A stretch of 64,000 nucleotides of DNA, from contig CP045477.1 of assembly GCA_009392915.1 (NCBI GenBank), positions 704,001-768,000 on the forward strand. Direction: 5' to 3'. The position numbers were made by a program, and so were the translations under genes. The notes under the pieces were generated by a model. It did not search any database. It was not told the DNA's origin and worked only from the letters and a program-made list of their open reading frames with translations. Origin of the DNA: Candidatus Forterrea multitransposorum CG_2015-17_Forterrea_25_41 (GTDB lineage Archaea; Iainarchaeota; Iainarchaeia; Iainarchaeales; CSSED10-239). Positions 3,787-49,838 of this stretch are shown one piece after another. Numbering within the stretch: position 1 is the first letter of the stretch; every line of letters begins with the position of its first letter.

Positions 3787-3929
3787 CTCATTTATTATTT
3801 TTTAATATAATAATTATATAAAAGATATATAAATAAATCGGTTAATTAAAAAAAATACATTTTTAAAAGTAACATACATATATATTGTTAAAAATAAACA
3901 TTTTTTAAAAAAAAGGAAAACACTTTATT

Positions 3930-5051
3930 ATGGATATAATAAATAAAAACTTAGAAAGTTATTTTAGTCTTGCAAATCAATTAAAGGAAGCGTTTAATAA
4001 TAAAAAATATGCCTTTATTAAATCAGTTTATATTCATGGTTCTTTTGCAAGAGGAGAAATTACTCCTAAAGAAAGTGATATTAACTTAATGATTTTTACT
4101 AAGAAAAAAGAAATTTTAGAAAAAGAAATTGAAACTATCTATAATATTAAACAAAAAATTGAAAGTAATTATTCAATAAAAATAGAATTTAAAATAAATA
4201 ATATTGAGAAAAATAGTCTTAAAAACATTACAACAGATATGTTCTATCCTTATCTTTATGATTTTATATTAAATAGCTTTTATATCTACGGAGAAAGAAT
4301 AGAAGACAAATTATTAAAAATTTTAAAAAATAAAACCTATTTTGAATTTTCATTTGAAACTACAAGTGTTTTTTCAAAAATAAGAATTGATTTTTTAGAA
4401 AATTATTTTAAAGAAAATAAATATAGAATGTACCATAATCTTTACAAATATTCAAGACTTTTAAAACAATTAAAAGTAAATGAAGAAGATATAGAAAAAT
4501 TAGTTTTAAAAATAACAGATTATAAAAATATAGATAAAGAAGAAATATTAAAATACATACTTAAATTTGAAGAACTTCTTGAAAAAGCAGATCTTAAAGA
4601 AATATATGAAAATAATAAAAAATTAAAATTATTTTTAGGATATGCAAAAGGAAGTTTAATCTATAATACTAAAACTAAAAAACTATTAATCCTTAGAGAA
4701 GATAGAAACATCTGTTCTTTTTGGTCAAAATCAGAAAAACAAGTAAAAAATAAAATTACTTTAAAAGATATCAAAAAAGATATTAAAGATAATTGTGGAA
4801 TTGATAAAATAACAATTGTTAAAAACAAAATAGGGGAATGTCATAATTGGTATGAAAAAGAAGACAATAGCTTTAAGAAAATACACACAGAATACTATTA
4901 TGCAACCACAGATTCTCCTGAAATGCCAATAAAAGATAATTGTTATGCATGGATTAAATTAAATGAAATTCAAAAATATATTTCTTCTCCTTGTCTTGGA
5001 TATATTGCAAAAGCATTCTATGAAGATTATATTAAAAAATTAGAAAAATAA
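3930..5051 (+). CDS. Nucleotidyltransferase-domain protein (pol-beta/MNT-like fold) with unknown C-terminal domain
   Basis: HGSFARGEITPKESDINLMIF matches the G[SG]-x9-13-[DE]h[DE]h minimal nucleotidyltransferase motif. 373 aa. Confidence 0.55.
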   Translation: MDIINKNLESYFSLANQLKEAFNNKKYAFIKSVYIHGSFARGEITPKESDINLMIFTKKKEILEKEIETIYNIKQKIESNYSIKIEFKINNIEKNSLKNITTDMFYPYLYDFILNSFYIYGERIEDKLLKILKNKTYFEFSFETTSVFSKIRIDFLENYFKENKYRMYHNLYKYSRLLKQLKVNEEDIEKLVLKITDYKNIDKEEILKYILKFEELLEKADLKEIYENNKKLKLFLGYAKGSLIYNTKTKKLLILREDRNICSFWSKSEKQVKNKITLKDIKKDIKDNCGIDKITIVKNKIGECHNWYEKEDNSFKKIHTEYYYATTDSPEMPIKDNCYAWIKLNEIQKYISSPCLGYIAKAFYEDYIKKLEK

Positions 5052-8109: not shown

Positions 8110-9456
8110 TTATAAAAAATATCTTGGAACCTCTAACAAACTTAAAAAGATACAAGCAGGAATAACTAACCTATTTTCTACAAAAACATCTCCAGGGGGC
8201 AAAACTGATTTAGATAATATTAAATAGTCTTTAACAAAATTAACATTATTTGGTTTTATTAAAGTATTTCTATATTTTACTTCTACTGCTTTTTTAAAAA
8301 CAATAAAATCAATTTCTTTTTTATCAACATTAAAATAAGATAAATCTAAATTATATAGATTATGTAAATGACTTGCAACAATGTTTTCAACTATAACACC
8401 TAATTTTTGTTCATTAAATAACAATTCTTTACTTTGAGCAAAATAATCTATATTTTTATAAAAATTTGTAATTGCATGTATTATAAAAGGATCTTTTACA
8501 TAAAATTTTTTAAGAATAGAAGATTGATTTTCTTTAACTTCAAAAACAACTAATAGCTCTGACAAAGTATTTAAGTAACTTTTAATAACATCTTGAGAAT
8601 AACCTGTTTTTTGTTGAATTGTAGAATATTTAATTTGGTTTGATAAAGAATCTATTAAAACTCTTAAAATTGCAATAGATTTTTGTTTATCTATTTTTTC
8701 AAATATTTTTTCTACAATATCTTCATAATATTTTTCAGATATATGATTTTTTTCAAAAAAAGAATTTATTGTTTCTGGAAAACCACCAGTTAATAAATAA
8801 TTATAGAAATATTTATTAATTTCTTCAAAATAATTTTCTAATAATTTATATTTCTCATAAATTAAAGTATTATCTTCACTTAGATTTATATGGTTATTTA
8901 ATATTACATCATGTAGTTTTAGGTTTTCTTTTTTTAATATAGTTAAAATATATTGTCTAAAAGTTAATGGGCCCATAATATTTTTTTTTTCAGACCTTCC
9001 AATTAGATATTGCCTACAAGCATCTATTGCTCTTGGATCAGAACCAGTAACAAATACACAAACATCTTTTAATAAATTTAAATCTTTTAAAGATTTTAAA
9101 AATAAACAACCTTCTTTTAAAGACTGAATTTCATCTAATAAAATTATTTTTTTATTATTTATTTTAATATCATGTTCTATAGTTTTTATTAATTCACTAG
9201 ATCTTATATTTAAAAGAGTGTCAAAATTAATGTAAGTAGAAGTATTTGGGTTATCTTGAGCAATTTTTTTTAAAAAAATAGTTTTTCCAACTCTTCTAGG
9301 GCCCTTTATTAAGTATATTTTGTTAGGAGCTATCTCTAATTGCTTTCTTTCGATGGAATATCTATTATTTTTTATTTTGGTAATCTCTAAGTCTTCTTTT
9401 CCTTGCCACCAAGGATTTTGTAAAATTATGTTTTTCCAATCAAGCATATATATCAT
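8110..9456 (-). CDS. Archaeal AAA+ ATPase (COG1373/DUF4143-type)
   Basis: Walker A LIKGPRRVGKTIF and Walker B ILLDEIQ. The domain organisation is typical of the archaeal 'predicted ATPase' family. Confidence 0.65.
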   Translation of the reverse strand: MIYMLDWKNIILQNPWWQGKEDLEITKIKNNRYSIERKQLEIAPNKIYLIKGPRRVGKTIFLKKIAQDNPNTSTYINFDTLLNIRSSELIKTIEHDIKINNKKIILLDEIQSLKEGCLFLKSLKDLNLLKDVCVFVTGSDPRAIDACRQYLIGRSEKKNIMGPLTFRQYILTILKKENLKLHDVILNNHINLSEDNTLIYEKYKLLENYFEEINKYFYNYLLTGGFPETINSFFEKNHISEKYYEDIVEKIFEKIDKQKSIAILRVLIDSLSNQIKYSTIQQKTGYSQDVIKSYLNTLSELLVVFEVKENQSSILKKFYVKDPFIIHAITNFYKNIDYFAQSKELLFNEQKLGVIVENIVASHLHNLYNLDLSYFNVDKKEIDFIVFKKAVEVKYRNTLIKPNNVNFVKDYLILSKSVLPPGDVFVENRLVIPACIFLSLLEVPRYFL

Positions 9457-38356: not shown

Positions 38357-39103
38357 ATGAAAAGAAAAATATTAATTACTGGTGGTTCTAGCGGGATTGG
38401 TAAAGAATATGCATATCAATTTGCTAAATTAAAAAAAGATTTAATCTTAGTTGCAAGAAACGAAATTGAACTTAAAAAAATTAAAAAAGATTTAGAGAAT
38501 AAATATAAAATTAAATGTGAATATTTAATATTTGATCTTTCAAAGTTAGATAAAATAAATCAACTTTGCAAGATTATTGAAAAAGAAAATATTGAAATAT
38601 TAATTAATAATGCAGGTTTTGGAAACAGAATTCCTTTTTCAAAAACAAATTATTCTATTACACAAAACATGATTAATGTTCATATCACTGCAACAACATT
38701 ACTTACAAGAGCTGTTTTAGATCAAATGATAAAAAGAAACTCAGGAAAAATTATAAATGTAGCATCTCTTGCAGGATATTTGTTTACTTCTAAAAGTAAC
38801 ATCATATACAATTCAACTAAAAGATACATAATACATTTTTCCAAAAACTTACAAGATGAAATTAAAAAACAAAACAAAAATATTAAAATTCAAGCACTTT
38901 GTCCTGGGTTTACAAAAACTAATTTTGATAAACATGCAATCTTTAAAACAATGCTTCCAAGATTACCTTCTTTTATGTACATGGAAGCAAAAGACGTGGT
39001 TTTAAAATCTATAAAAACATTAGAGAATAGAAGAGTAGTATATATTCCTAGTTTTAAAAATAAAATATTATATTTTTTATTAAGACTTAATTTTTATAGA
39101 TAA
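38357..39103 (+). CDS. Short-chain dehydrogenase/reductase (SDR)
   Basis: TGGSSGIGKEYA, NNAG and YNSTK (YxxxK). Confidence 0.8.
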   Translation: MKRKILITGGSSGIGKEYAYQFAKLKKDLILVARNEIELKKIKKDLENKYKIKCEYLIFDLSKLDKINQLCKIIEKENIEILINNAGFGNRIPFSKTNYSITQNMINVHITATTLLTRAVLDQMIKRNSGKIINVASLAGYLFTSKSNIIYNSTKRYIIHFSKNLQDEIKKQNKNIKIQALCPGFTKTNFDKHAIFKTMLPRLPSFMYMEAKDVVLKSIKTLENRRVVYIPSFKNKILYFLLRLNFYR

Positions 39104-40281
39104 AACAAGAGAGTTGGGAGCATTATATATCCCATTAAATACACTCTTGATTTATTAAAAACTAAAGGCACAAAACCTATTAAAAAACTTAAAAAGAAAA
39201 CTATAAGAGTCTTAAAGTCAGATAAAAAAATTATAAAAATAAAACTAATTATTAAAACAATAATATTTAATTTATTTAAATTTTTTGAATTAAAAAATAA
39301 AATAATATCTTTAACTATTGACAAAAGAATAAAAATAGTTAAACTAACTGTTAAAAGAATTGCAGAAATAAACAAAACTAAATCTGATTTTAAAAGAACT
39401 AATTTTTCAGAAAGTAAAATTGCAAAATAACCAAGTCTTGGTTTATTAAAAAACATTGCAAGAAAATAAGAAAAAATTAAAGCACTAATTGAAATACTTG
39501 AAAAAATAATTAAATAATTATAAGTAGATATTTTTTCTTTAAATCTGGAAAAAATTACAGCACCTAGAGAAGATGAAAAAGAAGGCACAAGTATTACAAA
39601 TAAAGATGCTAAAGAACCAAAAAAAGAATAAAAATAAGAATTTTCTAAAGAAGGCAAGAAAGAATGATTTGTTTTTTGATAAATATTATTGTGTTTTTTT
39701 TCAAAAATAGATTTTAAAAGTAAAGGAAACGTGAAAAGACCCATTACACAAATAAATAATGGTTCTTTTACAAAATAATTATATTTTAAAGTAAATAAAC
39801 CTAAAAGACCAGATGAAAAGATAATAAAAAAAATTATTAATTTATCTTTAATTGATTTATAGGAAAAAATAAAACTTATTATTGTAAAAATTATTGCAAA
39901 AGAAATTAAAAAATTAAAACCAATAAAAAAAGTAAATAATAAAAACAATAAAGGTAAAAGTAAAATAGAAAATAAACTACCAAAAAAAGAACCTATAAAA
40001 CAAAGAAAAATACCATCGTATGCTTGTTGTTTTAAAAATAACCTATGAAGAGGAAATAAAGACATTATGTTTTCTGTGTTTGGAACAGAAAAGAATGTTT
40101 GAGGAATATAATTTGTAATTAATTGAGATATTGAAAGAGATAAAAAGAAAAATAAATAATTTGGAAAAATTAAAAAAATACTAAAAGAAATAAAAAGATA
40201 AGAAACAAAATTAATATGTAAAGAAGGAATTAAACCTAAAAGAACACCAGTTAAAACCCCTAATATAACCTCTATAATCAT
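39094..40281 (-). CDS. Polytopic membrane protein (about 10 TM), last gene of the pilus-locus strand block
   Basis: 395 aa, very hydrophobic. N-terminus GVLTGVLLGLIPSLHIN weakly resembles TctA/DUF112. Confidence 0.3.
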   Translation of the reverse strand: MIIEVILGVLTGVLLGLIPSLHINFVSYLFISFSIFLIFPNYLFFFLSLSISQLITNYIPQTFFSVPNTENIMSLFPLHRLFLKQQAYDGIFLCFIGSFFGSLFSILLLPLLFLLFTFFIGFNFLISFAIIFTIISFIFSYKSIKDKLIIFFIIFSSGLLGLFTLKYNYFVKEPLFICVMGLFTFPLLLKSIFEKKHNNIYQKTNHSFLPSLENSYFYSFFGSLASLFVILVPSFSSSLGAVIFSRFKEKISTYNYLIIFSSISISALIFSYFLAMFFNKPRLGYFAILLSEKLVLLKSDLVLFISAILLTVSLTIFILLSIVKDIILFFNSKNLNKLNIIVLIISFIFIIFLSDFKTLIVFFLSFLIGFVPLVFNKSRVYLMGYIMLPTLLFYL

Positions 40282-40647
40282 TTAATCCTCAAATTTATAT
40301 AATATTATTTCTGGTTTGTTTTGATAAAGTGTATATTTACCAGTTATTTTTATTTCTTTTTTAAAAGAAAATGCATTTTGTAGTAAATCAACATTAGTTT
40401 TTGATGGATTAAAATAAACCACATCTATGCATGAAGAAAGATTACATATTTTAAAAAACAAATTATTGTTTTCAAGAGAAAAATCTTTTAAATTTCCTGA
40501 AACTAACACTACTTGTTCCAAAAGAGAAGAATCTGGTGATAAGAGGTCTAAAATAGGTGCTTTAAAAAAAAGAGTGCAAAAAAGAAAAATTAAAAGTGAG
40601 ATTATAATTGTTAAAATTAAAAATAAATTTAATTTTTTTTCATCCAT
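40282..40647 (-). CDS. N-terminally anchored hypothetical protein in the pilus locus
   Basis: 121 aa. One TM segment, then a soluble domain. Start/stop abut the neighbouring genes. Confidence 0.35.
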   Translation of the reverse strand: MDEKKLNLFLILTIIISLLIFLFCTLFFKAPILDLLSPDSSLLEQVVLVSGNLKDFSLENNNLFFKICNLSSCIDVVYFNPSKTNVDLLQNAFSFKKEIKITGKYTLYQNKPEIILYKFED

Positions 40648-40651
40648 ACTT

Positions 40652-41143
40652 TTATTTAATAATTTTTTTTATTTTTACAGGTTTTTTATTTACAAAAAAT
40701 TTAGATAATTCAATTAAAATTACAGTGCCTTCTTTTAAAGGTTTTGAATATTTTAAAGAAAATTCTTTATTTAAATTAAAGAAAGGATCTTTAATTTTAA
40801 AATAAACTTCTTTAGAAGTGCTTTTTGTAACAACTCCATAAGTTATGTTAAATAATACTTTAAATAAATATAAATAAAGTACAACAAGACACATAAAGAC
40901 TAATAAAAAATAAATATGTGTGATATATTGAGAAATAATAAACATCCCTAAAATAGATGTAAACCCAATACCTACATAATTATATTTTGCTTTAATTAAC
41001 TTATAATTACCAATTTCTTTAATGTAGAATAAAAAAGTTAAAAGCATTAATAGTATTTTTAAAAATAAATTACCAGGAACAATTAAATTCACAATAATTG
41101 AAAATAAAAAAATAATCTCTAAATAAATAATATGCTTATCCAT
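40652..41143 (-). CDS. Membrane protein (4 TM plus soluble C-terminus) in the pilus locus
   Basis: 163 aa. Confidence 0.35.
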   Translation of the reverse strand: MDKHIIYLEIIFLFSIIVNLIVPGNLFLKILLMLLTFLFYIKEIGNYKLIKAKYNYVGIGFTSILGMFIISQYITHIYFLLVFMCLVVLYLYLFKVLFNITYGVVTKSTSKEVYFKIKDPFFNLNKEFSLKYSKPLKEGTVILIELSKFFVNKKPVKIKKIIK

Positions 41144-41159
41144 AATTTAATTTCACCTA

Positions 41160-41522
41160 TTAAATACATTCTAAACTAATACTAATATTATCAAACTTTG
41201 TTCTATCTAACAAACCATTAGTTAGTGTTGTGTAATTATAATCATCAGGAACTATTGGACAATTAGTTTCAAGTCCTTTATTTAAATAAACAATCATATC
41301 TAAGTTATCATTATCAAATACATAATTAATAGTGTTAATTGAATAAGAATGATTATATCCAGCGATATATTTTAATGTTAAATTTTTTGTTTTATGCATA
41401 GCAATATTAATATCAAAAGTTGATGTTAAAGTTGCAACTACAGTTATAGCTATAACCATTACAATTAAAAGAATAATTAAAAACTCTAAACTAGTTTGAG
41501 CTTTTTTATCTTGAAGCAACAT
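41160..41522 (-). CDS. Minor pilin (class III signal)
   Basis: MLLQDKKAQTSLEFLIILLIVMVIAI: A|QTSLEF. Confidence 0.55.
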   Translation of the reverse strand: MLLQDKKAQTSLEFLIILLIVMVIAITVVATLTSTFDINIAMHKTKNLTLKYIAGYNHSYSINTINYVFDNDNLDMIVYLNKGLETNCPIVPDDYNYTTLTNGLLDRTKFDNISISLECI

Positions 41523-41982
41523 CTATATCTCCAGCAATAGTTTTTTCAACAACTAAATAATTATTAAACCCTGGTCCAACTTCATCACAAGTAAAATCTA
41601 CATCTCCAATAGATACTAATTTTTCAAAAGTACAGATGTTTGTAGTAGAATCACATGCAGAGATATTAGGTTTAGGATTTTGAGAAGAAATTGATATTTG
41701 GTATTCAATAATGTTTGTTGCAGAATCACAGTTTATAATTTTTGCATTATCAGGAAGATAAAAATAAACTAATCTTTTACCATATCCAGGAGAACTTGCA
41801 AAAGATGCTAAATCATCTCCAAGTTTATCAATAGATTGTTTTGTTTGAGTAATATTATAAATATCACCTACAATATTTTCTGAAAAAACAATATTTGGAT
41901 ATATGATTGCTTGAAAAAATAATAATAAAATAGATATTAAAATAATGTATTCAATTGCAATTTGTCCTTTTATATTTTTCAT
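41506..41982 (-). CDS. Minor pilin (class III signal)
   Basis: MKNIKGQIAIEYIILISILLLFF: G|QIAIEY. Confidence 0.55.
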   Translation of the reverse strand: MKNIKGQIAIEYIILISILLLFFQAIIYPNIVFSENIVGDIYNITQTKQSIDKLGDDLASFASSPGYGKRLVYFYLPDNAKIINCDSATNIIEYQISISSQNPKPNISACDSTTNICTFEKLVSIGDVDFTCDEVGPGFNNYLVVEKTIAGDIDVASR

Positions 41983-42013: not shown

Positions 42014-43135
42014 TTAAAAAATAAACCAAATAAAATCTCCAAAAATATTTAATAAAATATACGCTATTAACACAGAAGGGGTAAATGGAATTGTTTTTTT
42101 TAAAACTATCTCCTTCTCTAAATTATGTTTATATGAACTCTTTAAAAAGGTTATGTCTTCAGGTAAAAGACCCCCTATTTTCCTAGAATCTATGATTAGT
42201 TTATTTGATTTTTGTTTAGAGGTATATTCTTTTAAATAATCAATAAAGGATATTTTTTTTTCAATAACTTTTTTATTTGATAAATAATAATTATTTAAAA
42301 CAACATCTCCTTCTTTTAAATCATTTATTTTTTTACTAAAAGTTAATATCTTTGAAGAAATTATTTTATAAAAAGTTATACTTAAGAAAATAATAATAAT
42401 AGTTATAGTAATTATTAATAAATCATAGAAAACAAATATTCTTTTTGAATAAAACAAAGAATATCCAATTAATAATAAATAAAGCCCTAAAACTAAATAA
42501 TTATAGTGAAGAATATTTTGTTTTTCAATTTTTCTAAAAAACAAGATAAACATTATAGATAATAAAAAATAAATTAAAAAAGGGATATACATTTCAAAAA
42601 TATTAAAAAAAGAAGAAATTAAGAAAAGTATTAAAATAGAACTTACTAAAGAAAATAATGTGTTTTTTGTTTTTAATAAATTTATAAGTATTCTATAGTG
42701 TCTTTTAAATATAAATAAATAAATAGAACTAATTAAGAGAATAGGTGCTGTAGAAAGAATAGCAGTTAGTATTAAAGTCAAAGAAAATACAGGGATTGTT
42801 ATTATTTTAAAAGAAAATAAAAAGCCTAAAAAATTAATATTAAAAGGATTTAAGAAAGAAATTGCAGAAAACAACTTTAAATCACCACCTGCAAAGAAAC
42901 CAAACTCCCAAAGAACATACCCTACAATAAAGGTTATACCAAAAGATAAAAAAGCATTAAGAAGAATAGATATTTTTGAGAAATAAATTGTTTCTATTAT
43001 TTTAAAAATAACTCCAATAATTAATAAATATAATACTAAAAAATTTGGAACAATTCTTTTTTTAATATCATAATAACTTGCAAATAATAAAAATATCAAA
43101 GTTATTGAAAATGCAAAAAAAGGAAAGTTAAACAT
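42014..43135 (-). CDS. Prepilin peptidase (A24 family, PibD/FlaK/TadV-like) with an about 130-aa C-terminal extension
   Basis: Asp23 in SYYDIKKRIVPN. Second Asp in FFAGGDLKLF (GxGD-type). Multi-TM. 373 aa versus the typical ~250. Confidence 0.6.
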   Translation of the reverse strand: MFNFPFFAFSITLIFLLFASYYDIKKRIVPNFLVLYLLIIGVIFKIIETIYFSKISILLNAFLSFGITFIVGYVLWEFGFFAGGDLKLFSAISFLNPFNINFLGFLFSFKIITIPVFSLTLILTAILSTAPILLISSIYLFIFKRHYRILINLLKTKNTLFSLVSSILILFLISSFFNIFEMYIPFLIYFLLSIMFILFFRKIEKQNILHYNYLVLGLYLLLIGYSLFYSKRIFVFYDLLIITITIIIIFLSITFYKIISSKILTFSKKINDLKEGDVVLNNYYLSNKKVIEKKISFIDYLKEYTSKQKSNKLIIDSRKIGGLLPEDITFLKSSYKHNLEKEIVLKKTIPFTPSVLIAYILLNIFGDFIWFIF

Positions 43136-43160: not shown

Positions 43161-43349
43161 TTATAAAGAAGCTAAAATATTATCTCTATAAGTTAATATT
43201 TTAGATTTTGCAACAGTTATAAAACTATTTAAATTTAATATAACAATACCTGTTGTAATTACTAAAATCATACCAAAAACAATCATGATTAGATATTCAA
43301 TAGAGACTTGACCTCTTTGGTCATTTAAAAGTAAATTTAATCTATTCAT
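43161..43349 (-). CDS. Flp-size pilin (62 aa)
   Basis: NDQRGQVSIEYLIMIVFGMILVI: G|QVSIEY. Confidence 0.55.
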   Translation of the reverse strand: MNRLNLLLNDQRGQVSIEYLIMIVFGMILVITTGIVILNLNSFITVAKSKILTYRDNILASL

Positions 43350-43372: not shown

Positions 43373-43840
43373 TTACCTTGCAACACATGAAGATGCAGGA
43401 GTTGATGGTCTTGAATGAACATTATTTTTAACAGTTATAACTGATACTTCATACTCTGTTCCAACTGAATCTACAGATAAATCACTTGCAGGAACCTGTA
43501 AAATACTAGTGCCTTCTTGAACATATAACACATCTGTTCCTGATGGATAAGGATCATTATTATCTATTTTTATTCTATAACCTGTATTTGGAGCTGAAGA
43601 TACTAAATTAATAGTTACATTTCCACTTGCAACACAATCAACACTTGTAACAATTGGTGGAACTAAAGTATTATCTAAAATAGTTGTAATAGCTTCATCT
43701 TGCTGCAAAGCAGCTTCTCTATTAGAAGCATTCATATTAGTTATTAAAATAATCACAGAAATTGCAATAATTATAGTAGCACCAATCAAAAGCAAATATT
43801 CCATTGCTCCTTGTCCTTTTTGTTTTTTTAAAAATGTCAT
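43373..43840 (-). CDS. Pilin with C-terminal beta domain
   Basis: KKQKGQGAMEYLLLIGATIIIAI: G|QGAMEY. Confidence 0.6.
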   Translation of the reverse strand: MTFLKKQKGQGAMEYLLLIGATIIIAISVIILITNMNASNREAALQQDEAITTILDNTLVPPIVTSVDCVASGNVTINLVSSAPNTGYRIKIDNNDPYPSGTDVLYVQEGTSILQVPASDLSVDSVGTEYEVSVITVKNNVHSRPSTPASSCVAR

Positions 43841-43880
43841 AAATTACCATCTTTCTTTTAAAAATAAAAAAATAAAATAA

Positions 43881-43909
43881 AGTTGATTTTTTTTAAAAAA
43901 AAAAATCAA
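43881..43909. terminator. Hairpin GTTGAT8-A11TCAAC between the first long pilin gene and the downstream pilins (candidate attenuator/terminator)
   Basis: GTTGATTTTTTTT...AAAAAAAATCAAC lies 20 nt after the stop of 43929..44447. It shares the GTTGATTT/AAATCAAC core with 22572-22600. Confidence 0.5.
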
Positions 43910-43928
43910 CCTATTTTTAATTAACTAC

Positions 43929-44447
43929 TTAATCAACCCAACTAAATCTATAACCTTGAGATGTTACTGTTTGGTTATTCTTTGTTGTTTTAATATATAA
44001 GTAGTAAGAGTCACCACATTTGTTACCACTATTTAAAGTTAAATCCACATTTAAACCGTTAACTTCATTTGGATTTAAATCTGTTTCATCAATTGTCTCT
44101 AAACCAGAATTATCTGTTAATGAATCTATTGTTAATTCATTATTACTTGAATCCATGATATATAACTCGTGACTTCCACCTTCACCTAATGGTCTCCAAG
44201 AGAAATTTAAGTCAGCAGTTAATGCAGTTGAATCACATGCATCATATGCAGCAACAACTTGTACAATTTGTGATGGTTGAGGAACGTCTGTTGCTTGATT
44301 TGCTTTTTCAGCTTGAGCAGCAGCAGAGTCTCTTGATTGTCCACCCATACCTACAAGTAATGCAATAACAATAACAGCAATTAATACTGCACCACCAATT
44401 AAAAGAAGATACTCAAGAGCACCTTGTCCTTTAAATTTTTTATTCAT
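43929..44447 (-). CDS. Pilin (172 aa) with conserved C-terminal CGDSYYLYI..KNNQ..SQGY.F.W domain
   Basis: MNKKFKGQGALEYLLLIGGAVLIAVIVIALLV: G|QGALEY. Confidence 0.65.
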   Translation of the reverse strand: MNKKFKGQGALEYLLLIGGAVLIAVIVIALLVGMGGQSRDSAAAQAEKANQATDVPQPSQIVQVVAAYDACDSTALTADLNFSWRPLGEGGSHELYIMDSSNNELTIDSLTDNSGLETIDETDLNPNEVNGLNVDLTLNSGNKCGDSYYLYIKTTKNNQTVTSQGYRFSWVD

Positions 44448-44579
44448 TTTTAAACACCTTTTTTATATTTTTTAAACATCACACATAAAGTGTATAACTA
44501 ATAACTTGTACTAGTTAAATTAATTAAAATATTACATACAATATATTTATATATGTTTCTTTTCAATATTTCAAACCAA

Positions 44580-44753
44580 TTAACTATTATTAACTATTGA
44601 TTGATAGTCAGTTGCAGTCTTAACATTCTTTGCAGAAGTTTGTTTTACAAAAATTCCAACAGTTAATGCAACTAATATAACAACTCCAGTAATAATTATA
44701 AACTCTAAAGAAACCTGTCCTTTATTATCTTTTATTAATCTTCTTAATTTCAT
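44580..44753 (-). CDS. Short Flp-type pilin, 57 aa (not in ORF track; candidate major pilin)
   Basis: Reverse-strand ORF: ATG at 44751-44753, stop at 44580-44582. MKLRRLIKDNKGQVSLEFIIITGVVILVALTVGIFVKQTSAKNVKTATDYQSIVNNS. G|QVSLEF motif. Confidence 0.55.
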   Translation of the reverse strand: MKLRRLIKDNKGQVSLEFIIITGVVILVALTVGIFVKQTSAKNVKTATDYQSIVNNS

Positions 44754-44755
44754 AT

Positions 44756-45652
44756 CTAAACCATTCCTGAAAGCATTAAATTAAGTATTACTTGAGAAAT
44801 AAAATATACTATATATCCAATAGTAATTAATACAGGGAAAAATAAAACTACAAAGCTTAAATCTCCTTCTCTCATAACACTTATCATTGATGCAGCAGCA
44901 AATATTTCAATAACAATATAAATATCTAAAAGTAAAAAGATTGTTTTTTGAGCATCTAAAGAAACTTGTAAAGCCTCTGCTGCTGCAATTCCTGAATTTA
45001 CAGCTATATCTGTTAAAAAACCAGTAATTACTCTTGTCATTCCAAAAATAAATGGAGCCACAATTGCAGAAGCAGCAACAATAAAAATTGTTTGAAGCAT
45101 TGTTTTTGTTTGTCTTTCCTTTTTAACCCTGAACAATTGTTTAGTGTCATTTGCAATTTCTTCTAAAACATCAGCTAATTGTGCACCTGTTCTTAAAGAT
45201 TCTTGAATTAAAGTAATAGTTCTTCTTACAATTTTAGATTCAATTCTTAAAGCTAAATAACTTAAAGCAACATACATTGAATCTCCCATTTCAAGTCTTC
45301 TAATAGCTTCATTAATTTCAAAAGAAAGGGGTCCGAAATCAGCAGTGGATACTTCTCTTAAAGCAAAATCAAATGAAGAACCAGCCTTCATTGTGTCTGC
45401 AATTAACTTTAAAGAATCTGGCCAATATCTTTCAATTTCTCTTATTTTTTTAAAATAAAGATACATTGGAAGACCTAAACCTAAAACTAAAGCATTTACA
45501 AATAATAAAAGTCCGATCTTTATATCTAAGAAATAACCGATTATCCCTAAGAATATACTTGCAAAAAATATTAAAACAATCCATATTTTTGCAGGAATCT
45601 TTATTTTTAAAGCATATAAAAATACTTGATATCTGTCTAATCCTTTACTCAA
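44756..45652 (-). CDS. TadC/FlaJ-like platform protein (single T2SS-F domain)
   Basis: About 6 TM with a cytoplasmic helical domain. It pairs with 45659..46804. Confidence 0.55.
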   Translation of the reverse strand: MSKGLDRYQVFLYALKIKIPAKIWIVLIFFASIFLGIIGYFLDIKIGLLLFVNALVLGLGLPMYLYFKKIREIERYWPDSLKLIADTMKAGSSFDFALREVSTADFGPLSFEINEAIRRLEMGDSMYVALSYLALRIESKIVRRTITLIQESLRTGAQLADVLEEIANDTKQLFRVKKERQTKTMLQTIFIVAASAIVAPFIFGMTRVITGFLTDIAVNSGIAAAEALQVSLDAQKTIFLLLDIYIVIEIFAAASMISVMREGDLSFVVLFFPVLITIGYIVYFISQVILNLMLSGMV

Positions 45653-45658
45653 ATTAAA

Positions 45659-46804
45659 TCACATTTTTGGTTCAATCATTTTAATATAATATACTAAAAA
45701 GATGAATATTATTGGTAGTGCTACTGCAAAAATTAAAGTTAATGTTGTTGGTGTCATAACTCCTGGTAAAAACAAAGATCCATCTTGTCCTAGAGGAGCA
45801 TTTGCAATTGCACCTAAAATTGCAGCAAATACAGGCATAACAATAGCCATGAAAATAAAAATAATTCCAAAGAAATTCATTTTTTCTCCGAATGTTTTAG
45901 TAGATTCTAAAAGATCAAAAGATACTGTGTCTGCAACACTATTAATTGTGCTTGCCAAATTACCACCTGTATTTAATGTTCTAACAATGTGGAAAAGTGC
46001 AATGTTATAATTTTTAGATTGACTTCTTAATGCAGAATGTCTTAAAGCTGTTTTTGTATCAGTACCATTTTCAATTTCTAAGATGGTTCTATTCATTTCT
46101 TCTGATAATACACCATAATCATTTGCAGCAACAGATTGTAATACTTTATAAAGACCAATACCTGCTTGAAGTTCTGTTGCAATATGTCTTAAAGCAAATG
46201 GAAGTTCAATATCAATATAGACTCCTCTGGATTTTGCTTTTTGCATTGGAATAACATATGAAAGAATAAAAACAAATACTAAAAATAAAATTGGCCAAAT
46301 AAAAAGGATACTAACTGTCCATAAAGGCATAGTTGCAACAAAAATAATTAATAATAAAAAAGATAAAAAACTTGCAATCAATAAAGAAAATATAGTTGAA
46401 AGAACTAAATGTTGTACTAATGTTCTTTTATAGTTTGCAGAGGTTAAATAATAAGATATTTTTTTACCTAAAGAATTCTTTAAAATATATAAAACCACAG
46501 AATCAACTAATTTTTTAAAAGGTTTATAATATTTAGCAGCACTTTTTTCAAGAGTACCTTCTGTATTTGCAGCTAATTTATTTTCAGCATCAACATCAAA
46601 CTGAGAAAGTCTACCTTGAGAAATTACTTCTCTTAGTTCTTTTAAATGACCTTCAGATAAAGATTCAGATGTAATATTTTTGTCCTTTTCTTTCATTTTT
46701 TTAACAATATTTTGAACAGCATCTAAATCTACATCTAAGTCGTCTTTCTTGGATTTATTTTTTTCTAAATCACTTTTTAAAAGTTCTAATTTTTTTGAAT
46801 CCAT
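45659..46804 (-). CDS. TadB/FlaJ-like platform protein (single T2SS-F domain)
   Basis: ELPFALRHIATELQAGIGLYKVLQSVAANDYGVLSEEMNRTILEIENGTDTKTAL is T2SS-F-like. Confidence 0.6.
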   Translation of the reverse strand: MDSKKLELLKSDLEKNKSKKDDLDVDLDAVQNIVKKMKEKDKNITSESLSEGHLKELREVISQGRLSQFDVDAENKLAANTEGTLEKSAAKYYKPFKKLVDSVVLYILKNSLGKKISYYLTSANYKRTLVQHLVLSTIFSLLIASFLSFLLLIIFVATMPLWTVSILFIWPILFLVFVFILSYVIPMQKAKSRGVYIDIELPFALRHIATELQAGIGLYKVLQSVAANDYGVLSEEMNRTILEIENGTDTKTALRHSALRSQSKNYNIALFHIVRTLNTGGNLASTINSVADTVSFDLLESTKTFGEKMNFFGIIFIFMAIVMPVFAAILGAIANAPLGQDGSLFLPGVMTPTTLTLIFAVALPIIFIFLVYYIKMIEPKM

Positions 46805-46840: not shown

Positions 46841-48856
46841 CTATCTTTTTAGTATATATTCTTTTTGGACTTCATGTGCAACATCATTAATAGCCCTAAT
46901 TTTCTTAGAACGTAAATCTTCAAGGATTTTTGCTCTATCACTAATTTTATTTAAAATATCTTGATCATTTAAGTTTGTGTATGTTTTAATTAAATCAAAG
47001 TAAAGAATAGGTTCTTTAGTTCTTTCAAGAGAATCTGTTTCAGGATTCCAAACAAAGACCATATTTATCTTTGGATCTCCATCTAACACACCCATAATCT
47101 CTGCAATTGCAGTAATTCTTCTAACTTGTCCTTTTGAAGTTCTTAATCTTTTTTGAATAATTATAAAATCAATTCCTGCAAGCATTAATGGAGGAACATC
47201 CATTGGTGGTGAAGTTAATCTTACAATTGTTTCTTTTGCAGAATTTGCGTGCACTGTACCCATACAACCATCGTGACCAGTGTTCATGGCAGTGAAAAGA
47301 GTAGTTGCTTCTTTGTGTCTAATTTCACCTACAACTATTCTATCAGGTCTCATTCTTAAAGTGTTTTTAGTTAAGATTTCTAAACTTAATTCACCTTTTC
47401 CTTCTAGGCCTGGTGGTTTTCCTTCAAATCTAATTACATGCTTTATAGGAAGTCTTAATTCCGCAGTGTCTTCAATTGTTAATATTCTGTCTGCTTCTGG
47501 AATAAAGTTTGCAAGAACATTTAATGTAGTTGTTTTTCCAGAACCAGTACCACCTGAAATTAAAATATTTGCAGGTTTTGCACCAAATCCTTCAACAACA
47601 CACCACAAAAATGCAGCTACTTCTAAATTAAGTGTTTTAAAGTTTATTAAATCAACTATAGTGTAAGGATCATCTCTGAACTTTCTAATAGTAACTGTAG
47701 AACCATCAATTGATGCTGGAGGCACAGTAGCATTTACACGAGAACCATCTGGAAGTCTTGCATCTAAAAGAGGATTTGAAATATCTACACTTCTTCCTAA
47801 AGATCTTGCAATTTTATCAATAATATCATTAATTCCATCATCTGAAAAGAAAATAATATTTGTTGTCATCATTCCATAATCTACATGGTAAACATATACT
47901 GGTTTTTTAGGACCAACAATCATAATTTCTTCTAATTTGTCATCTTCAAGTAATGGTTCAATCACACCATAACCAGTCATTTCTTTAACAACTGCATCTG
48001 CATAAAAAGGATAAAGATGTTTTGGGATATTTATTTCTTGTGCAGTTTCTAAAATATCAATTACTTTTTGATAATATATGTTTTTTCTTTGAAGAGGATC
48101 TCTTATTTTATAAGGATCAGAAGCAACAAGTCTTGTGGTTGCTTCTTTTAAAGTATTAATTATAATTTTTTGACTAGGATTTGGTTTTGGAACAGGAACA
48201 GAATAGTGTAATATAGATTGAGTGTCAAGTCTATAAATTTTAACTTCACCATATTTTGTAACTAATGTAGCCCCATCAATTTTTTCTTCTTGTTTTTCAA
48301 AAGCAGAATCTCCTTTTGTTTCAGAAAGTTCTGAAGATTTTATTTCTGAATTAGTATTAAGTGCTTTTAATTTTGAAAGGGCATCAAGTTTATTTTGTTT
48401 TTGTGTATCTGTATCAAAAACAGAATCTTTATCATCTTCAATTAATTTTTTTTCTTTTTCAGATAAATCACCAATATCTAATGTTTTTGATTTTTCTTGA
48501 GAGTCTTGTTTTTCAGCATTTTTTGCTTTTAATCTTTCAAATAAAGAATCTTGTGATTCTGTTGAATTTACTTTTTCTTGTTTTTTAGAAGAATCAAATT
48601 CAGATAAATCCATTATTTTTTTGTTTTGTGTAAAAGAAGATGGCTCTTGTGATTTATTGTGAGAATCAACATCAACAGATTTTTTTTCAAAAAAGTTATC
48701 TTGCTTTAAAGTTTCTTTTTTAGAATCTAGAGAAATTTCTTCTTTCTTTTCAGGTGCATTTTCAGCAGCTTTTCTAGCTTCTTCTTTTTGTTTATCTTTT
48801 TCTAAACTATATTTTCCAACTAAATCATCAATATATGAGGGCATAAAATTATTCAC
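46841..48856 (-). CDS. Pilus assembly ATPase (FlaI/TadA/GspE family) with a disordered K/E/S-rich N-terminal region of about 230 aa
   Basis: ILISGGTGSGKTTTLNVLANFI (Walker A), ILTIEDTAELRL (Asp box) and a His box region. Confidence 0.8.
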   Translation of the reverse strand: MNNFMPSYIDDLVGKYSLEKDKQKEEARKAAENAPEKKEEISLDSKKETLKQDNFFEKKSVDVDSHNKSQEPSSFTQNKKIMDLSEFDSSKKQEKVNSTESQDSLFERLKAKNAEKQDSQEKSKTLDIGDLSEKEKKLIEDDKDSVFDTDTQKQNKLDALSKLKALNTNSEIKSSELSETKGDSAFEKQEEKIDGATLVTKYGEVKIYRLDTQSILHYSVPVPKPNPSQKIIINTLKEATTRLVASDPYKIRDPLQRKNIYYQKVIDILETAQEINIPKHLYPFYADAVVKEMTGYGVIEPLLEDDKLEEIMIVGPKKPVYVYHVDYGMMTTNIIFFSDDGINDIIDKIARSLGRSVDISNPLLDARLPDGSRVNATVPPASIDGSTVTIRKFRDDPYTIVDLINFKTLNLEVAAFLWCVVEGFGAKPANILISGGTGSGKTTTLNVLANFIPEADRILTIEDTAELRLPIKHVIRFEGKPPGLEGKGELSLEILTKNTLRMRPDRIVVGEIRHKEATTLFTAMNTGHDGCMGTVHANSAKETIVRLTSPPMDVPPLMLAGIDFIIIQKRLRTSKGQVRRITAIAEIMGVLDGDPKINMVFVWNPETDSLERTKEPILYFDLIKTYTNLNDQDILNKISDRAKILEDLRSKKIRAINDVAHEVQKEYILKR

Positions 48857-49838
48857 CTTGTTTATTTGAGTTTATTAAAATAATTTGTGCAAGTAAAGCT
48901 TCAAGCTGTATTCTATCATTTGCACCTTCAACTAATCTAAAATTAATTTCTGCTATACGATCAATAATTTTTACTTTTAAATTAATTGTAATTTTATCTT
49001 CAGGATAGACTATAAATTTTTTATAAATTTGATTAATTACATCTTCTCCACTTAGACCTTGCTCAAAAAGAAGTTTTTCCATAAAACCTCTTGCTTTTAA
49101 AAAATCCCCTTCAAGACAAGCATCAATCATATGAAAAATGTCTTGTGGTTGAGCAGAATTTGAAACTTCATAAATTATTTCTTTTGTAATTTTATCCCCA
49201 ATAGATGAAGCTGCTTGAAGATAGTTAATTGCAGTTCTCATATCTCCTTCACAAACATCATAAATTGCATCTAATGCATCTTGATCATAAGAAACATTTT
49301 CTTTTGTAAGAATCATTGTTAAATATTTAATAATATCTTCTTTTAAGATTGGTTTAAATTTATAAAGAGAACATCTACTTTGTATTGGTGTTATTAATTT
49401 TGAAGAATAATTTGCATTAAGAATAAACCTTACAGTACCAGTATATTTTTCCATAGTTCTTCTTAAAGCTTGTTGAGCATCAACTGTTAAGGCATCTGCT
49501 TCATCTAAGAATATTATTTTAAAGTCTGCACCTAAAGGTATTGTTCTTGAAAAATCTTTTATAGCTCCTCTAACAACACCAATACCTCTTTCATCAGAAG
49601 CATTAAGTTCTAAAAAATCTTGTGAGAAAGTATTTTGAAAAAGTTCTTTTGCAAGAGCTACTGCTGAACAAGTTTTTCCAACACCTGGAGGTCCTGCAAA
49701 TAAAAGATTAGGCATACTTCTTTTTTCTACATATTTTTTTAATCTAGGGACTACATGTGTCTGACCAACCATTTGATCTAAAGTCTTTGGTCTATATTTT
49801 TCTGTCCATGGAAAAGAAGCATCTGTTTTTAATGTCAA
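48849..49838 (-). CDS. rfcS: Replication factor C small subunit
   Basis: LLFAGPPGVGKTCSAVALAKE, IIFLDEADALT and SRC motif (IQSRCSLY). Confidence 0.85.
   Translation of the reverse strand: MTLKTDASFPWTEKYRPKTLDQMVGQTHVVPRLKKYVEKRSMPNLLFAGPPGVGKTCSAVALAKELFQNTFSQDFLELNASDERGIGVVRGAIKDFSRTIPLGADFKIIFLDEADALTVDAQQALRRTMEKYTGTVRFILNANYSSKLITPIQSRCSLYKFKPILKEDIIKYLTMILTKENVSYDQDALDAIYDVCEGDMRTAINYLQAASSIGDKITKEIIYEVSNSAQPQDIFHMIDACLEGDFLKARGFMEKLLFEQGLSGEDVINQIYKKFIVYPEDKITINLKVKIIDRIAEINFRLVEGANDRIQLEALLAQIILINSNKQGE

Follow-up and report, generated by a model that had tools for sequence, protein, structure and literature searches.

The window, the whole stretch of DNA analysed here, is 64,000 nucleotides long and has a GC content of 25.9%. 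It carries archaeal housekeeping genes, such as that for the RFC small subunit, and its host is a DPANN archaeon of the Iainarchaeota (Diapherotrites). On the minus strand, at 44580-44753, lies an open reading frame for a protein of 57 aa that runs from an ATG start to a TAA stop. We refer to it as pil57, a predicted prepilin gene, and its translation is MKLRRLIKDNKGQVSLEFIIITGVVILVALTVGIFVKQTSAKNVKTATDYQSIVNNS, exactly as it had been quoted in the first-pass annotation of this DNA. The same annotation had the frame starting 3 nt after the stop of a tadC gene, which fits because only the dinucleotide AT separates that stop codon (44756-44758) from the ATG of pil57, so that the ATG opens at the third base past the stop. 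Codons 44718-44753 specify a putative 12-residue signal peptide, with the cleavage site placed by its motif; the predicted mature helix of 45 residues is encoded at 44583-44717, and 44580-44582 is the stop codon.

The genes around pil57 encode the parts of a pilus machine, and all of them are on the minus strand. One of them, at 46841-48856, is for a secretion/assembly ATPase of the T2SSE type, FlaI/TadA-like (PF00437, E 1.5e-48). Its NCBIfam scores of 284 bits to FlaI and 228 bits to the TadA family are both under the equivalog cut-offs, and public gene calls begin it at the ATG at 48844, giving a product of 667 aa. It is followed by two platform genes with one T2SSF domain each. The first encodes a TadB/EpdJ-like protein of 381 aa (45659-46804; PF00482, E 5.5e-15), and the second a TadC/EpdK-like protein of 298 aa (44756-45652; PF00482, E 2.6e-15) whose best NCBIfam match is the C-terminal half of ArlJ/FlaJ and which is 77-87% identical in relatives. 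In one relative (L006, 3853-5643) the ATPase gene is separated from the first platform gene by an inserted gene for a 596-aa beta-helix protein, which may be an adhesin. At the other end of the ATPase gene, the RFC small-subunit gene (48849-49838, minus strand) ends at or overlaps the ATPase start (48844-48856). This adjacency is kept in those relatives whose contigs extend that far (L001/L002, L004/L005 and L006), and the pilus machinery may therefore be co-transcribed with a replication gene.

Downstream of pil57 there are five further pilin-like genes, so that the cluster holds six in two size classes. They are pil172, for a pilin of 172 aa with the motif KG/QGALEY, the slash marking the predicted cut (43929-44447; PF04021, 29.3 bits); pil155, for a pilin-like protein of 155 aa with KG/QGAMEY (43373-43840; PF04021, 24.6 bits); pil62, for a second short helix-only pilin with RG/QVSIEY and a mature length of 49 aa (43161-43349); pil158, for a pilin-like protein of 158 aa with KG/QIAIEY, recognised by Pfam search and cleavage motif (41506-41982); and pil120, for a pilin-like protein of 120 aa with KA/QTSLEF (41160-41522), which overlaps pil158 by 17 nt. 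The 62-aa product of pil62 scores 17.3 bits against PF04021, below the cut-off, and reaches E 0.039 with TadF; its mature part is almost invariant among relatives. No pil62 gene is on record among the calls returned for the NCBI assembly GCA_964591795.1, where the frame is intact (L004, 9422-9664). A search of all six frames of the 64-kb window for the motif [KR..][GAS]Q-x3-E-[FY..] followed by a hydrophobic stretch gave six occurrences, all of which fell within 41.1-44.8 kb of the minus strand. The placement originally described, of a short pilin gene with a prepilin-type motif and no globular domain between a TadC-like gene and a 172-aa pilin gene, is thus what the locus contains.

Between pil62 and pil158 lies a gene for an EppA-like prepilin peptidase of 373 aa (42014-43135) with a Peptidase_A24 domain (PF01478, E 3.6e-13) and an Arc_PepC C-terminal domain (PF06819, E 6.7e-6). 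Among NCBIfam models EppA matches it best, although the 49 bits reached fall far short of the cut-off of 450, and candidate catalytic residues Asp23 and Asp85 (AGGD) are present. Neither a second ATPase of the FleN/MinD or FlaH-like type, which is frequent in such loci, nor a secretin/RcpA or TadZ gene was seen adjoining the cluster. After the pilin and peptidase genes (39094-41143, minus strand) come genes for a small OB-fold protein and a membrane protein, and then one for a TctA-like membrane protein (PF01970, 395 aa). A distant archaeon, Ca. Pyrohabitans jungbluthii (L015, 6492-8795), has them arranged likewise, and the TctA-like proteins of the two archaea align end to end with 25% identity (E 6e-31); the TctA-like, OB-fold and membrane proteins may be accessory pilus components. 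A T2SSE ATPase together with two platform genes, each with a single PF00482 domain, is the combination that defines the archaeal TFF system 1, or Epd-like, machines, whose loci frequently include an EppA-like peptidase of their own (bioRxiv 10.64898/2026.04.22.720090; PMC6668835; PMC4858521), and, as judged from this gene content, pil57 lies in an Epd/Tad-like ("system 1") pilus cluster.

The frame of pil57 is short, at 57 codons, and has several spurious ones, 30-60 codons long, close to it, as would suit a chance frame in AT-rich DNA or a conserved non-coding element. The comparison with relatives argues strongly for selection on a protein. Pairwise dN/dS values among five orthologues were 0.05-0.40, and in the helix block two relatives (L004 and L006) differed by 12 synonymous and 0 non-synonymous changes. 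By region, pN/pS was 0.60 in the leader, 0.09 in the first 26 mature residues (the helix) and 0.49 in the tail; by these codon alignments, the protein varies as pilins usually do, with an alpha1-N that is invariant and an exposed part that is not. Both frame and length are kept in relatives down to 63% identity, and the gene order, from a 295-300-aa T2SSF protein to a short pilin of 57-64 aa to a pilin of 173-183 aa, is kept in 4-5 divergent relatives. The product matches a Pfam family above threshold and independent pipelines already call the gene, whereas scans of the whole 64-kb window with Rfam and for tRNAs gave no match, and the opposite strand of pil57 has no ORF of at least 30 aa. The conserved non-coding signature that had been named in advance as grounds for doubting the gene is not what the alignments contain, because the substitutions are biased towards synonymous sites and the codon-level comparison points to selection on the protein. 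This analysis rules out a chance frame or non-coding element for practical purposes, and we consider that reading to have a negligible probability. The codon evidence indicates that pil57 is a real protein-coding gene under purifying selection.

The gene had been described as unannotated, and this proved to be wrong. The exact protein is in GenBank as a "class III signal peptide-containing protein" (NCP72603.1, NCP79782.1, NCP98519.1 and NCQ07550.1, labelled [archaeon]), and it has been called on many public contigs; the index lists 103 blocks for it, and 24 contigs were read. Close relatives carry the JGI name "uncharacterized protein (UPF0333 family)". It was only from the ORF track used in the first reading, which kept frames of at least 60 aa, that pil57 was missing, as that reading had itself remarked. 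The nearest species-level relatives are all from DPANN archaea, namely "Candidatus ainarchaeum sp." (96% identity), "Candidatus Iainarchaeum archaeon" (77%) and "Candidatus Diapherotrites archaeon" (68%). An exhaustive profile search of 1.84 billion representatives returned only 32 pil57-family clusters at E<=0.001, and a broader profile, run against 5.8 billion proteins, returned 109 clusters at 90% identity, all of them short proteins. The named proteins found with the broader profile come from Diapherotrites or unclassified archaeal MAGs with one exception (P0094), to which a MAG record gives the name Izemoplasmatales bacterium. In neither search was there a protein named as from Methanococcus or another methanogen, and EpdE was not reached.

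Two entries met during these searches need separate mention. A public 61-aa protein ending in ...DNSWR (P0005; L010, 2424-2609) results from a gene-calling error, a TGA having been translated as Trp; with code 11 this locus reads DNS*R* and encodes a 59-aa pilin. A protein of 4941 aa (P0021) gave 16 separate matches in the representative search, the best of them to the polar tail of the pil57 profile (positions 37-51), and these probably reflect a low-complexity repeat.

The layout of the pil57 product is that of a short pilin, and all of the elements first described for it are present: a basic leader of 12 aa, the sequence QVSLEF, a hydrophobic stretch of 24 residues and a polar tail of 21 residues. 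Cleavage is predicted after Gly12 (KG/QVSLEF) and would leave 45 residues, or 4.8 kDa, with 24 hydrophobic residues (GRAVY 2.35) followed by 21 polar ones (GRAVY -1.05), which end in the C-terminal peptide TATDYQSIVNNS. The protein matches Pfam PF04021 (Class_IIIsignal; DUF361 / UPF0333), the N-terminus of archaeal type IV prepilins, scoring 32.5 bits where the gathering cut-off is 23.7 (E 7.8e-8) and aligning its residues 10-35 to positions 1-26 of the 27 in the model, and the same match is precomputed for it in public collections. The score places pil57 within this family. NCBIfam TIGR04205, for the PIP-CTERM-associated class III protein, was rejected at 23 bits against a cut-off of 65. Among 15 homologues of 57-65 aa and 63-100% identity, G12, Q13, S15-I20 and G23-V32 are invariant, and all orthologues in this close family have Glu5-Phe6. 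In the wider family (25 members) the residue at -1 is G, A or S, while Q+1 and E+5 do not vary. The single N-glycosylation sequon of pil57, NNS near the C-terminus, is not conserved among orthologues.

Structure prediction agrees with this layout. AlphaFold2, run with a 15-sequence alignment, modelled pil57 as one continuous helix over residues 16-56 (mean pLDDT 78.6) with no other element, and the 45-residue mature product would accordingly have the architecture of a helix-only, or Tad-like, pilin, in which about 40-60 mature residues make up a single unbroken helix and a C-terminal domain is lacking (PMC10710030). A Foldseek search of the PDB with this model gave no match, which is uninformative either way because a lone helix carries no usable fold signal, and a PDB search with the single sequence gave only noise. 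The profile of the pil57 family matched alpha1 of the Pyrobaculum arsenaticum pilin 6W8U (E 0.0015, residues 2-30 of 6W8U), the two having the same N-terminal alpha1 sequence pattern. All archaeal type IV pilins solved to date consist, to our knowledge, of alpha1 plus an Ig-like domain. Those structures carry a C-terminal beta-sandwich, whereas pil57 stops after the helix; the solved pilins are instead resembled by pil172, for which AlphaFold2 predicted a helix at residues 10-53 plus an Ig-like beta-sandwich (pLDDT 82.8).

The first-pass annotation called pil57 a Flp-type pilin, and as an architectural analogy this holds well. The mature Caulobacter Flp pilin PilA is 45 residues long, and its filament consists of helices alone, the polar C-terminal halves lying at the surface (PMC10710030). 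Caulobacter crescentus PilA (PDB 8U1K) and pil57 thus have in common a helix-only mature form of 45 residues with a hydrophobic N-terminal half and a polar C-terminal half. Both Flp pilins and pil57 are cut after Gly and have Glu5 followed by an aromatic residue, and Tad systems, like the pil57 cluster, have a split platform of the TadB/TadC type. Bacterial Tad pili have been inferred to derive from an Epd-like archaeal system, with the split platform and short major pilins common to both (PMC6668835). As a family assignment the name did not stand. When pil57 was compared in length and signal with Flp and TadE pilins, as the first-pass annotation had suggested, PF04964 did not match it at E<=1 and TadE reached only E 0.17; the family matched is PF04021. 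The aromatic residue is Phe6 in pil57, unlike the conserved Tyr6 of the Flp motif, and both Gln+1 and the archaeal type of peptidase are unlike those of Flp systems. Pairwise BLAST between pil57 and Caulobacter PilA gave a weak match around the cleavage site (19.6 bits, E 8e-4, in a single comparison with an approximate PilA sequence). Given the lack of a PF04964 match, the Glu5-Phe6 pair and the weakness of the PilA match, we regard "Flp-type" as a fair account of the way in which the protein probably works and not as a family assignment.

That pil57 might be a true member of the bacterial Flp/Fap family of Tad pilins, for example one acquired from bacteria, is suggested by its size and layout, by the weak N-terminal matches to TadE and, for pil62, TadF, and by the similarity to the approximate PilA query near the cleavage site. 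Set against these are the PF04021 score above the cut-off, the archaeal origin of the named relatives apart from the Izemoplasmatales record, the archaeal Arc_PepC domain of the peptidase, the archaeal housekeeping neighbour encoding the RFC small subunit, and the best PDB match, which is an archaeal pilin. Bacterial family identity is effectively refuted by this combination of family, neighbour and PDB evidence, and we consider it highly improbable.

A closer counterpart of pil57 is found in the Epd pilus of Methanococcus maripaludis. There the EppA substrates carry leaders of 5-13 aa whose last residue is Gly, and have Gln at +1 and Glu at +5 (PMC3875500), and Epd pilins are cut at KGQ[VIL] (PMC4371748, Table 1). 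The pil57 product follows this rule, with a 12-aa leader (MKLRRLIKDNKG), G-1, Q+1, E+5 and the sequence KG/QV. In that system EpdE is the major pilin, with 74 aa (62 when mature), and EpdA-C are minor pilins of 130-156 aa (PMC3875500; PMC4390842). EpdE (MMP1685), which belongs to the Methanococcales major-pilin family arCOG06620, is like pil57 in its 12-residue class III signal peptide, KG/Q cut, Gln+1 and Glu+5, and in being very short and without a globular domain. The two machines are also alike, each having an EppA-type peptidase, one ATPase, two single-domain platform proteins and several pilin-like proteins of 120-170 aa. More broadly, clade 1 systems have a single ATPase, a pair of TadC-like genes, EppA, five or more minor pilins and predicted major pilins that are small, at ~70 aa (PMC4858521); the Epd-like/Tad clade is characterised by two single-T2SSF platform proteins together with short major pilins (PMC6668835); and two platform genes are the hallmark of archaeal system 1, in which a primary pilin without a globular domain is found in methanogens, Thermococcales and DPANN according to a 2026 survey (bioRxiv 10.64898/2026.04.22.720090).

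There are differences as well. Mature pil57 has 45 aa and mature EpdE 62; EpdE has 3-4 N-glycosylation sequons whereas pil57 has none that is conserved; and the hosts are a DPANN archaeon and a methanogen, respectively. The likeness between the two is one of features, the sequence relationship that could be traced between them being that of the PF04021 N-terminus. In clade 1 the genes for major pilins usually stand alone, and the larger class III proteins within the loci are predicted to be minor pilins (PMC4858521). In this respect pil57, which is encoded in the cluster directly after a platform gene, departs from EpdE and most clade 1 major pilins. Taking the product and its neighbours together, our analysis makes it very probable that pil57 encodes a processed, helix-only pilin subunit of the adjoining pilus machine.

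What part pil57 would play in the filament is a harder question, and here the 172-aa pilin has to be considered. In the split-platform systems that have been studied, Epd and Tad, the filament consists mainly of the short helix-only pilin, and pilins of 120-190 aa are minor (PMC3875500, PMC6668835, PMC10710030, PMC4858521). The pil57 product is divided amphipathically and varies in its tail, as an exposed region would, and both features would suit a subunit that forms the surface of a filament. That pil57 is the major, or most abundant, subunit of a filament, which the first-pass annotation had suggested from its size, is plausible by analogy with EpdE and Flp, and we rate the chance of it at slightly under even. 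A competitor for this role is pil62, the second helix-only pilin of the cluster.

The expression signals that could be recognised around these two genes belong to pil172. The spacer of 132 nt between pil57 and pil172 contains a conserved block (44513-44577, minus strand), GAAACATATATAAATATATTGTATGTAATATTTTAATTAATTT, which is nearly invariant in five relatives; in their alignment it has long runs of invariant columns and its conservation exceeds that of the flanking coding DNA. Within it is a BRE/TATA-like core, GAAACATATATAAATA (44544-44559, minus strand), that would be the promoter of pil172. A near-identical copy of the motif is present in a second intergenic region, at 3820-3835 on the plus strand, ~95 nt upstream of a nucleotidyltransferase gene (3930-5051), and the occurrence of a second copy ahead of another gene suggests a BRE/TATA promoter. 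The spacer block is probably a strong promoter of this kind with a long leader, serving pil172. A conserved Shine-Dalgarno-like GGTG (44455-44458, minus strand) lies 8-11 nt before the pil172 ATG, and after its stop codon an A/T hairpin formed by gttgattttttttttt and aaaaaaaatcaac and followed by T runs (43861-43910, minus strand) resembles a terminator and may act as one. In the leader itself (44448-44512, minus strand) GCAC...GGTG is conserved, an arrangement in which the Shine-Dalgarno site could become paired. A hairpin sequestering that site was unsupported, with a consensus fold of -2.2 kcal/mol and no convincing covariation.

For pil57, inspection of the 3' end of the platform gene revealed no recognisable promoter and no comparable conserved Shine-Dalgarno site. 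A stretch there, AGGAATGG, is conserved but coding, and in two relatives (L008/L009) it is 28 nt upstream. A scan for sigma-70 promoters and intrinsic terminators, which is unsuited to an archaeon, gave promoters no more often than expected from shuffled sequence. From this arrangement pil57 is apparently co-transcribed with the platform genes, and the cluster appears to hold separate transcription units.

These observations bear on a different division of labour, in which pil57 would be a minor or low-abundance subunit used in priming or at the base or tip, and the bulk of the fibre would be the 172-aa pilin with its alpha1 and Ig-like domain. Several features are consistent with it: the 2-nt gap by which pil57 abuts the platform gene with no promoter or Shine-Dalgarno site of its own recognised, the promoter-like block, GGTG site and terminator-like hairpin of pil172, and the canonical archaeal pilin fold predicted for the latter. 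The pil172 family is also large (323 clusters, compared with 15 for pil57) and is diversifying rapidly, with tandem paralogues. Against a minor role stand the Epd and Tad precedents, in which the short helix-only pilins are major subunits, and the variability of the pil57 tail. The position of the gene is weak evidence on subunit role, because in the Sulfolobus ups and aap operons the major pilin genes directly follow the platform gene. We think a minor role for pil57 quite possible, and would give it somewhat less than an even chance.

Several paralogues of the pil172 family were found on single short contigs, and one relative (L006) has two homologous pil172-type copies adjacent in tandem, at 8348-8899 and 8936-9421. 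The codons of the pil172 N-terminal helix have unusually low synonymous divergence (pS 0.26, other parts being near 0.5), a possible sign of gene conversion or of a constraint at the nucleotide level.

Alternatively, one machine could make two filaments, a thin one of helix-only subunits (pil57 and/or pil62) and a thicker one of the pil172 type expressed from its own promoter. The six pilin-like genes in two size classes and the apparent presence of separate transcription units would fit such an arrangement, and a recent survey proposes two pilus types for system 1 (bioRxiv 10.64898/2026.04.22.720090, section 9). The proposal is deduced throughout and overlaps with the two readings already set out, either of which it could possibly overlay; we consider it unlikely.

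For pil57 as a processed pilin subunit we propose the following route of assembly; cleavage, polymerisation and function are deduced here by analogy. The 57-aa precursor would insert into the membrane, where the EppA-like aspartyl peptidase, encoded 1.4 kb downstream, would cut off the basic 12-residue leader after Gly12 (KG/QVSLEF). The mature protein of 45 residues would be one continuous alpha-helix with no globular head. The FlaI/TadA-like ATPase and the two single-domain TadB/TadC-like platform proteins would then extract it from the membrane, and the same machinery would polymerise it into a type IV filament of the Epd/Tad type. In that filament the invariant hydrophobic N-terminal 24 residues would pack in the core and the variable polar C-terminal 21 residues would form the surface, as in the Caulobacter Flp/PilA filament. 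Its function would likely be adhesion, which for a DPANN cell may mean adhesion to a host.

It should be noted that pil57 is an ordinary member of a known family, and that no new question is opened by it; public resources already contain the family, the system type and the exact protein. Pili are considered to be the means by which DPANN archaea attach to their hosts. Helix-only pilins are the hallmark that links archaeal Epd to bacterial Tad pili, and with both of these points in mind an in-cluster Flp-like pilin in the Iainarchaeota is a useful, if unsurprising, data point. The locus also illustrates that a cut-off of 60 aa for ORFs hides real pilus subunits, as two of the six pilin genes here are of 57 and 62 aa. 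We tentatively hypothesize, while considering it a little less probable than its opposite, that this Iainarchaeota DPANN cell builds a thin, Tad/Flp-like adhesive filament mainly from the helix-only pilin of 45 residues. If this is true, the locus, with its short pilin gene placed in the cluster after split platform genes, would be among the most Tad-like archaeal pilus loci known, and it would provide a small natural model of the archaeal ancestor of bacterial Tad pili and also of the way in which DPANN archaea attach to their hosts.
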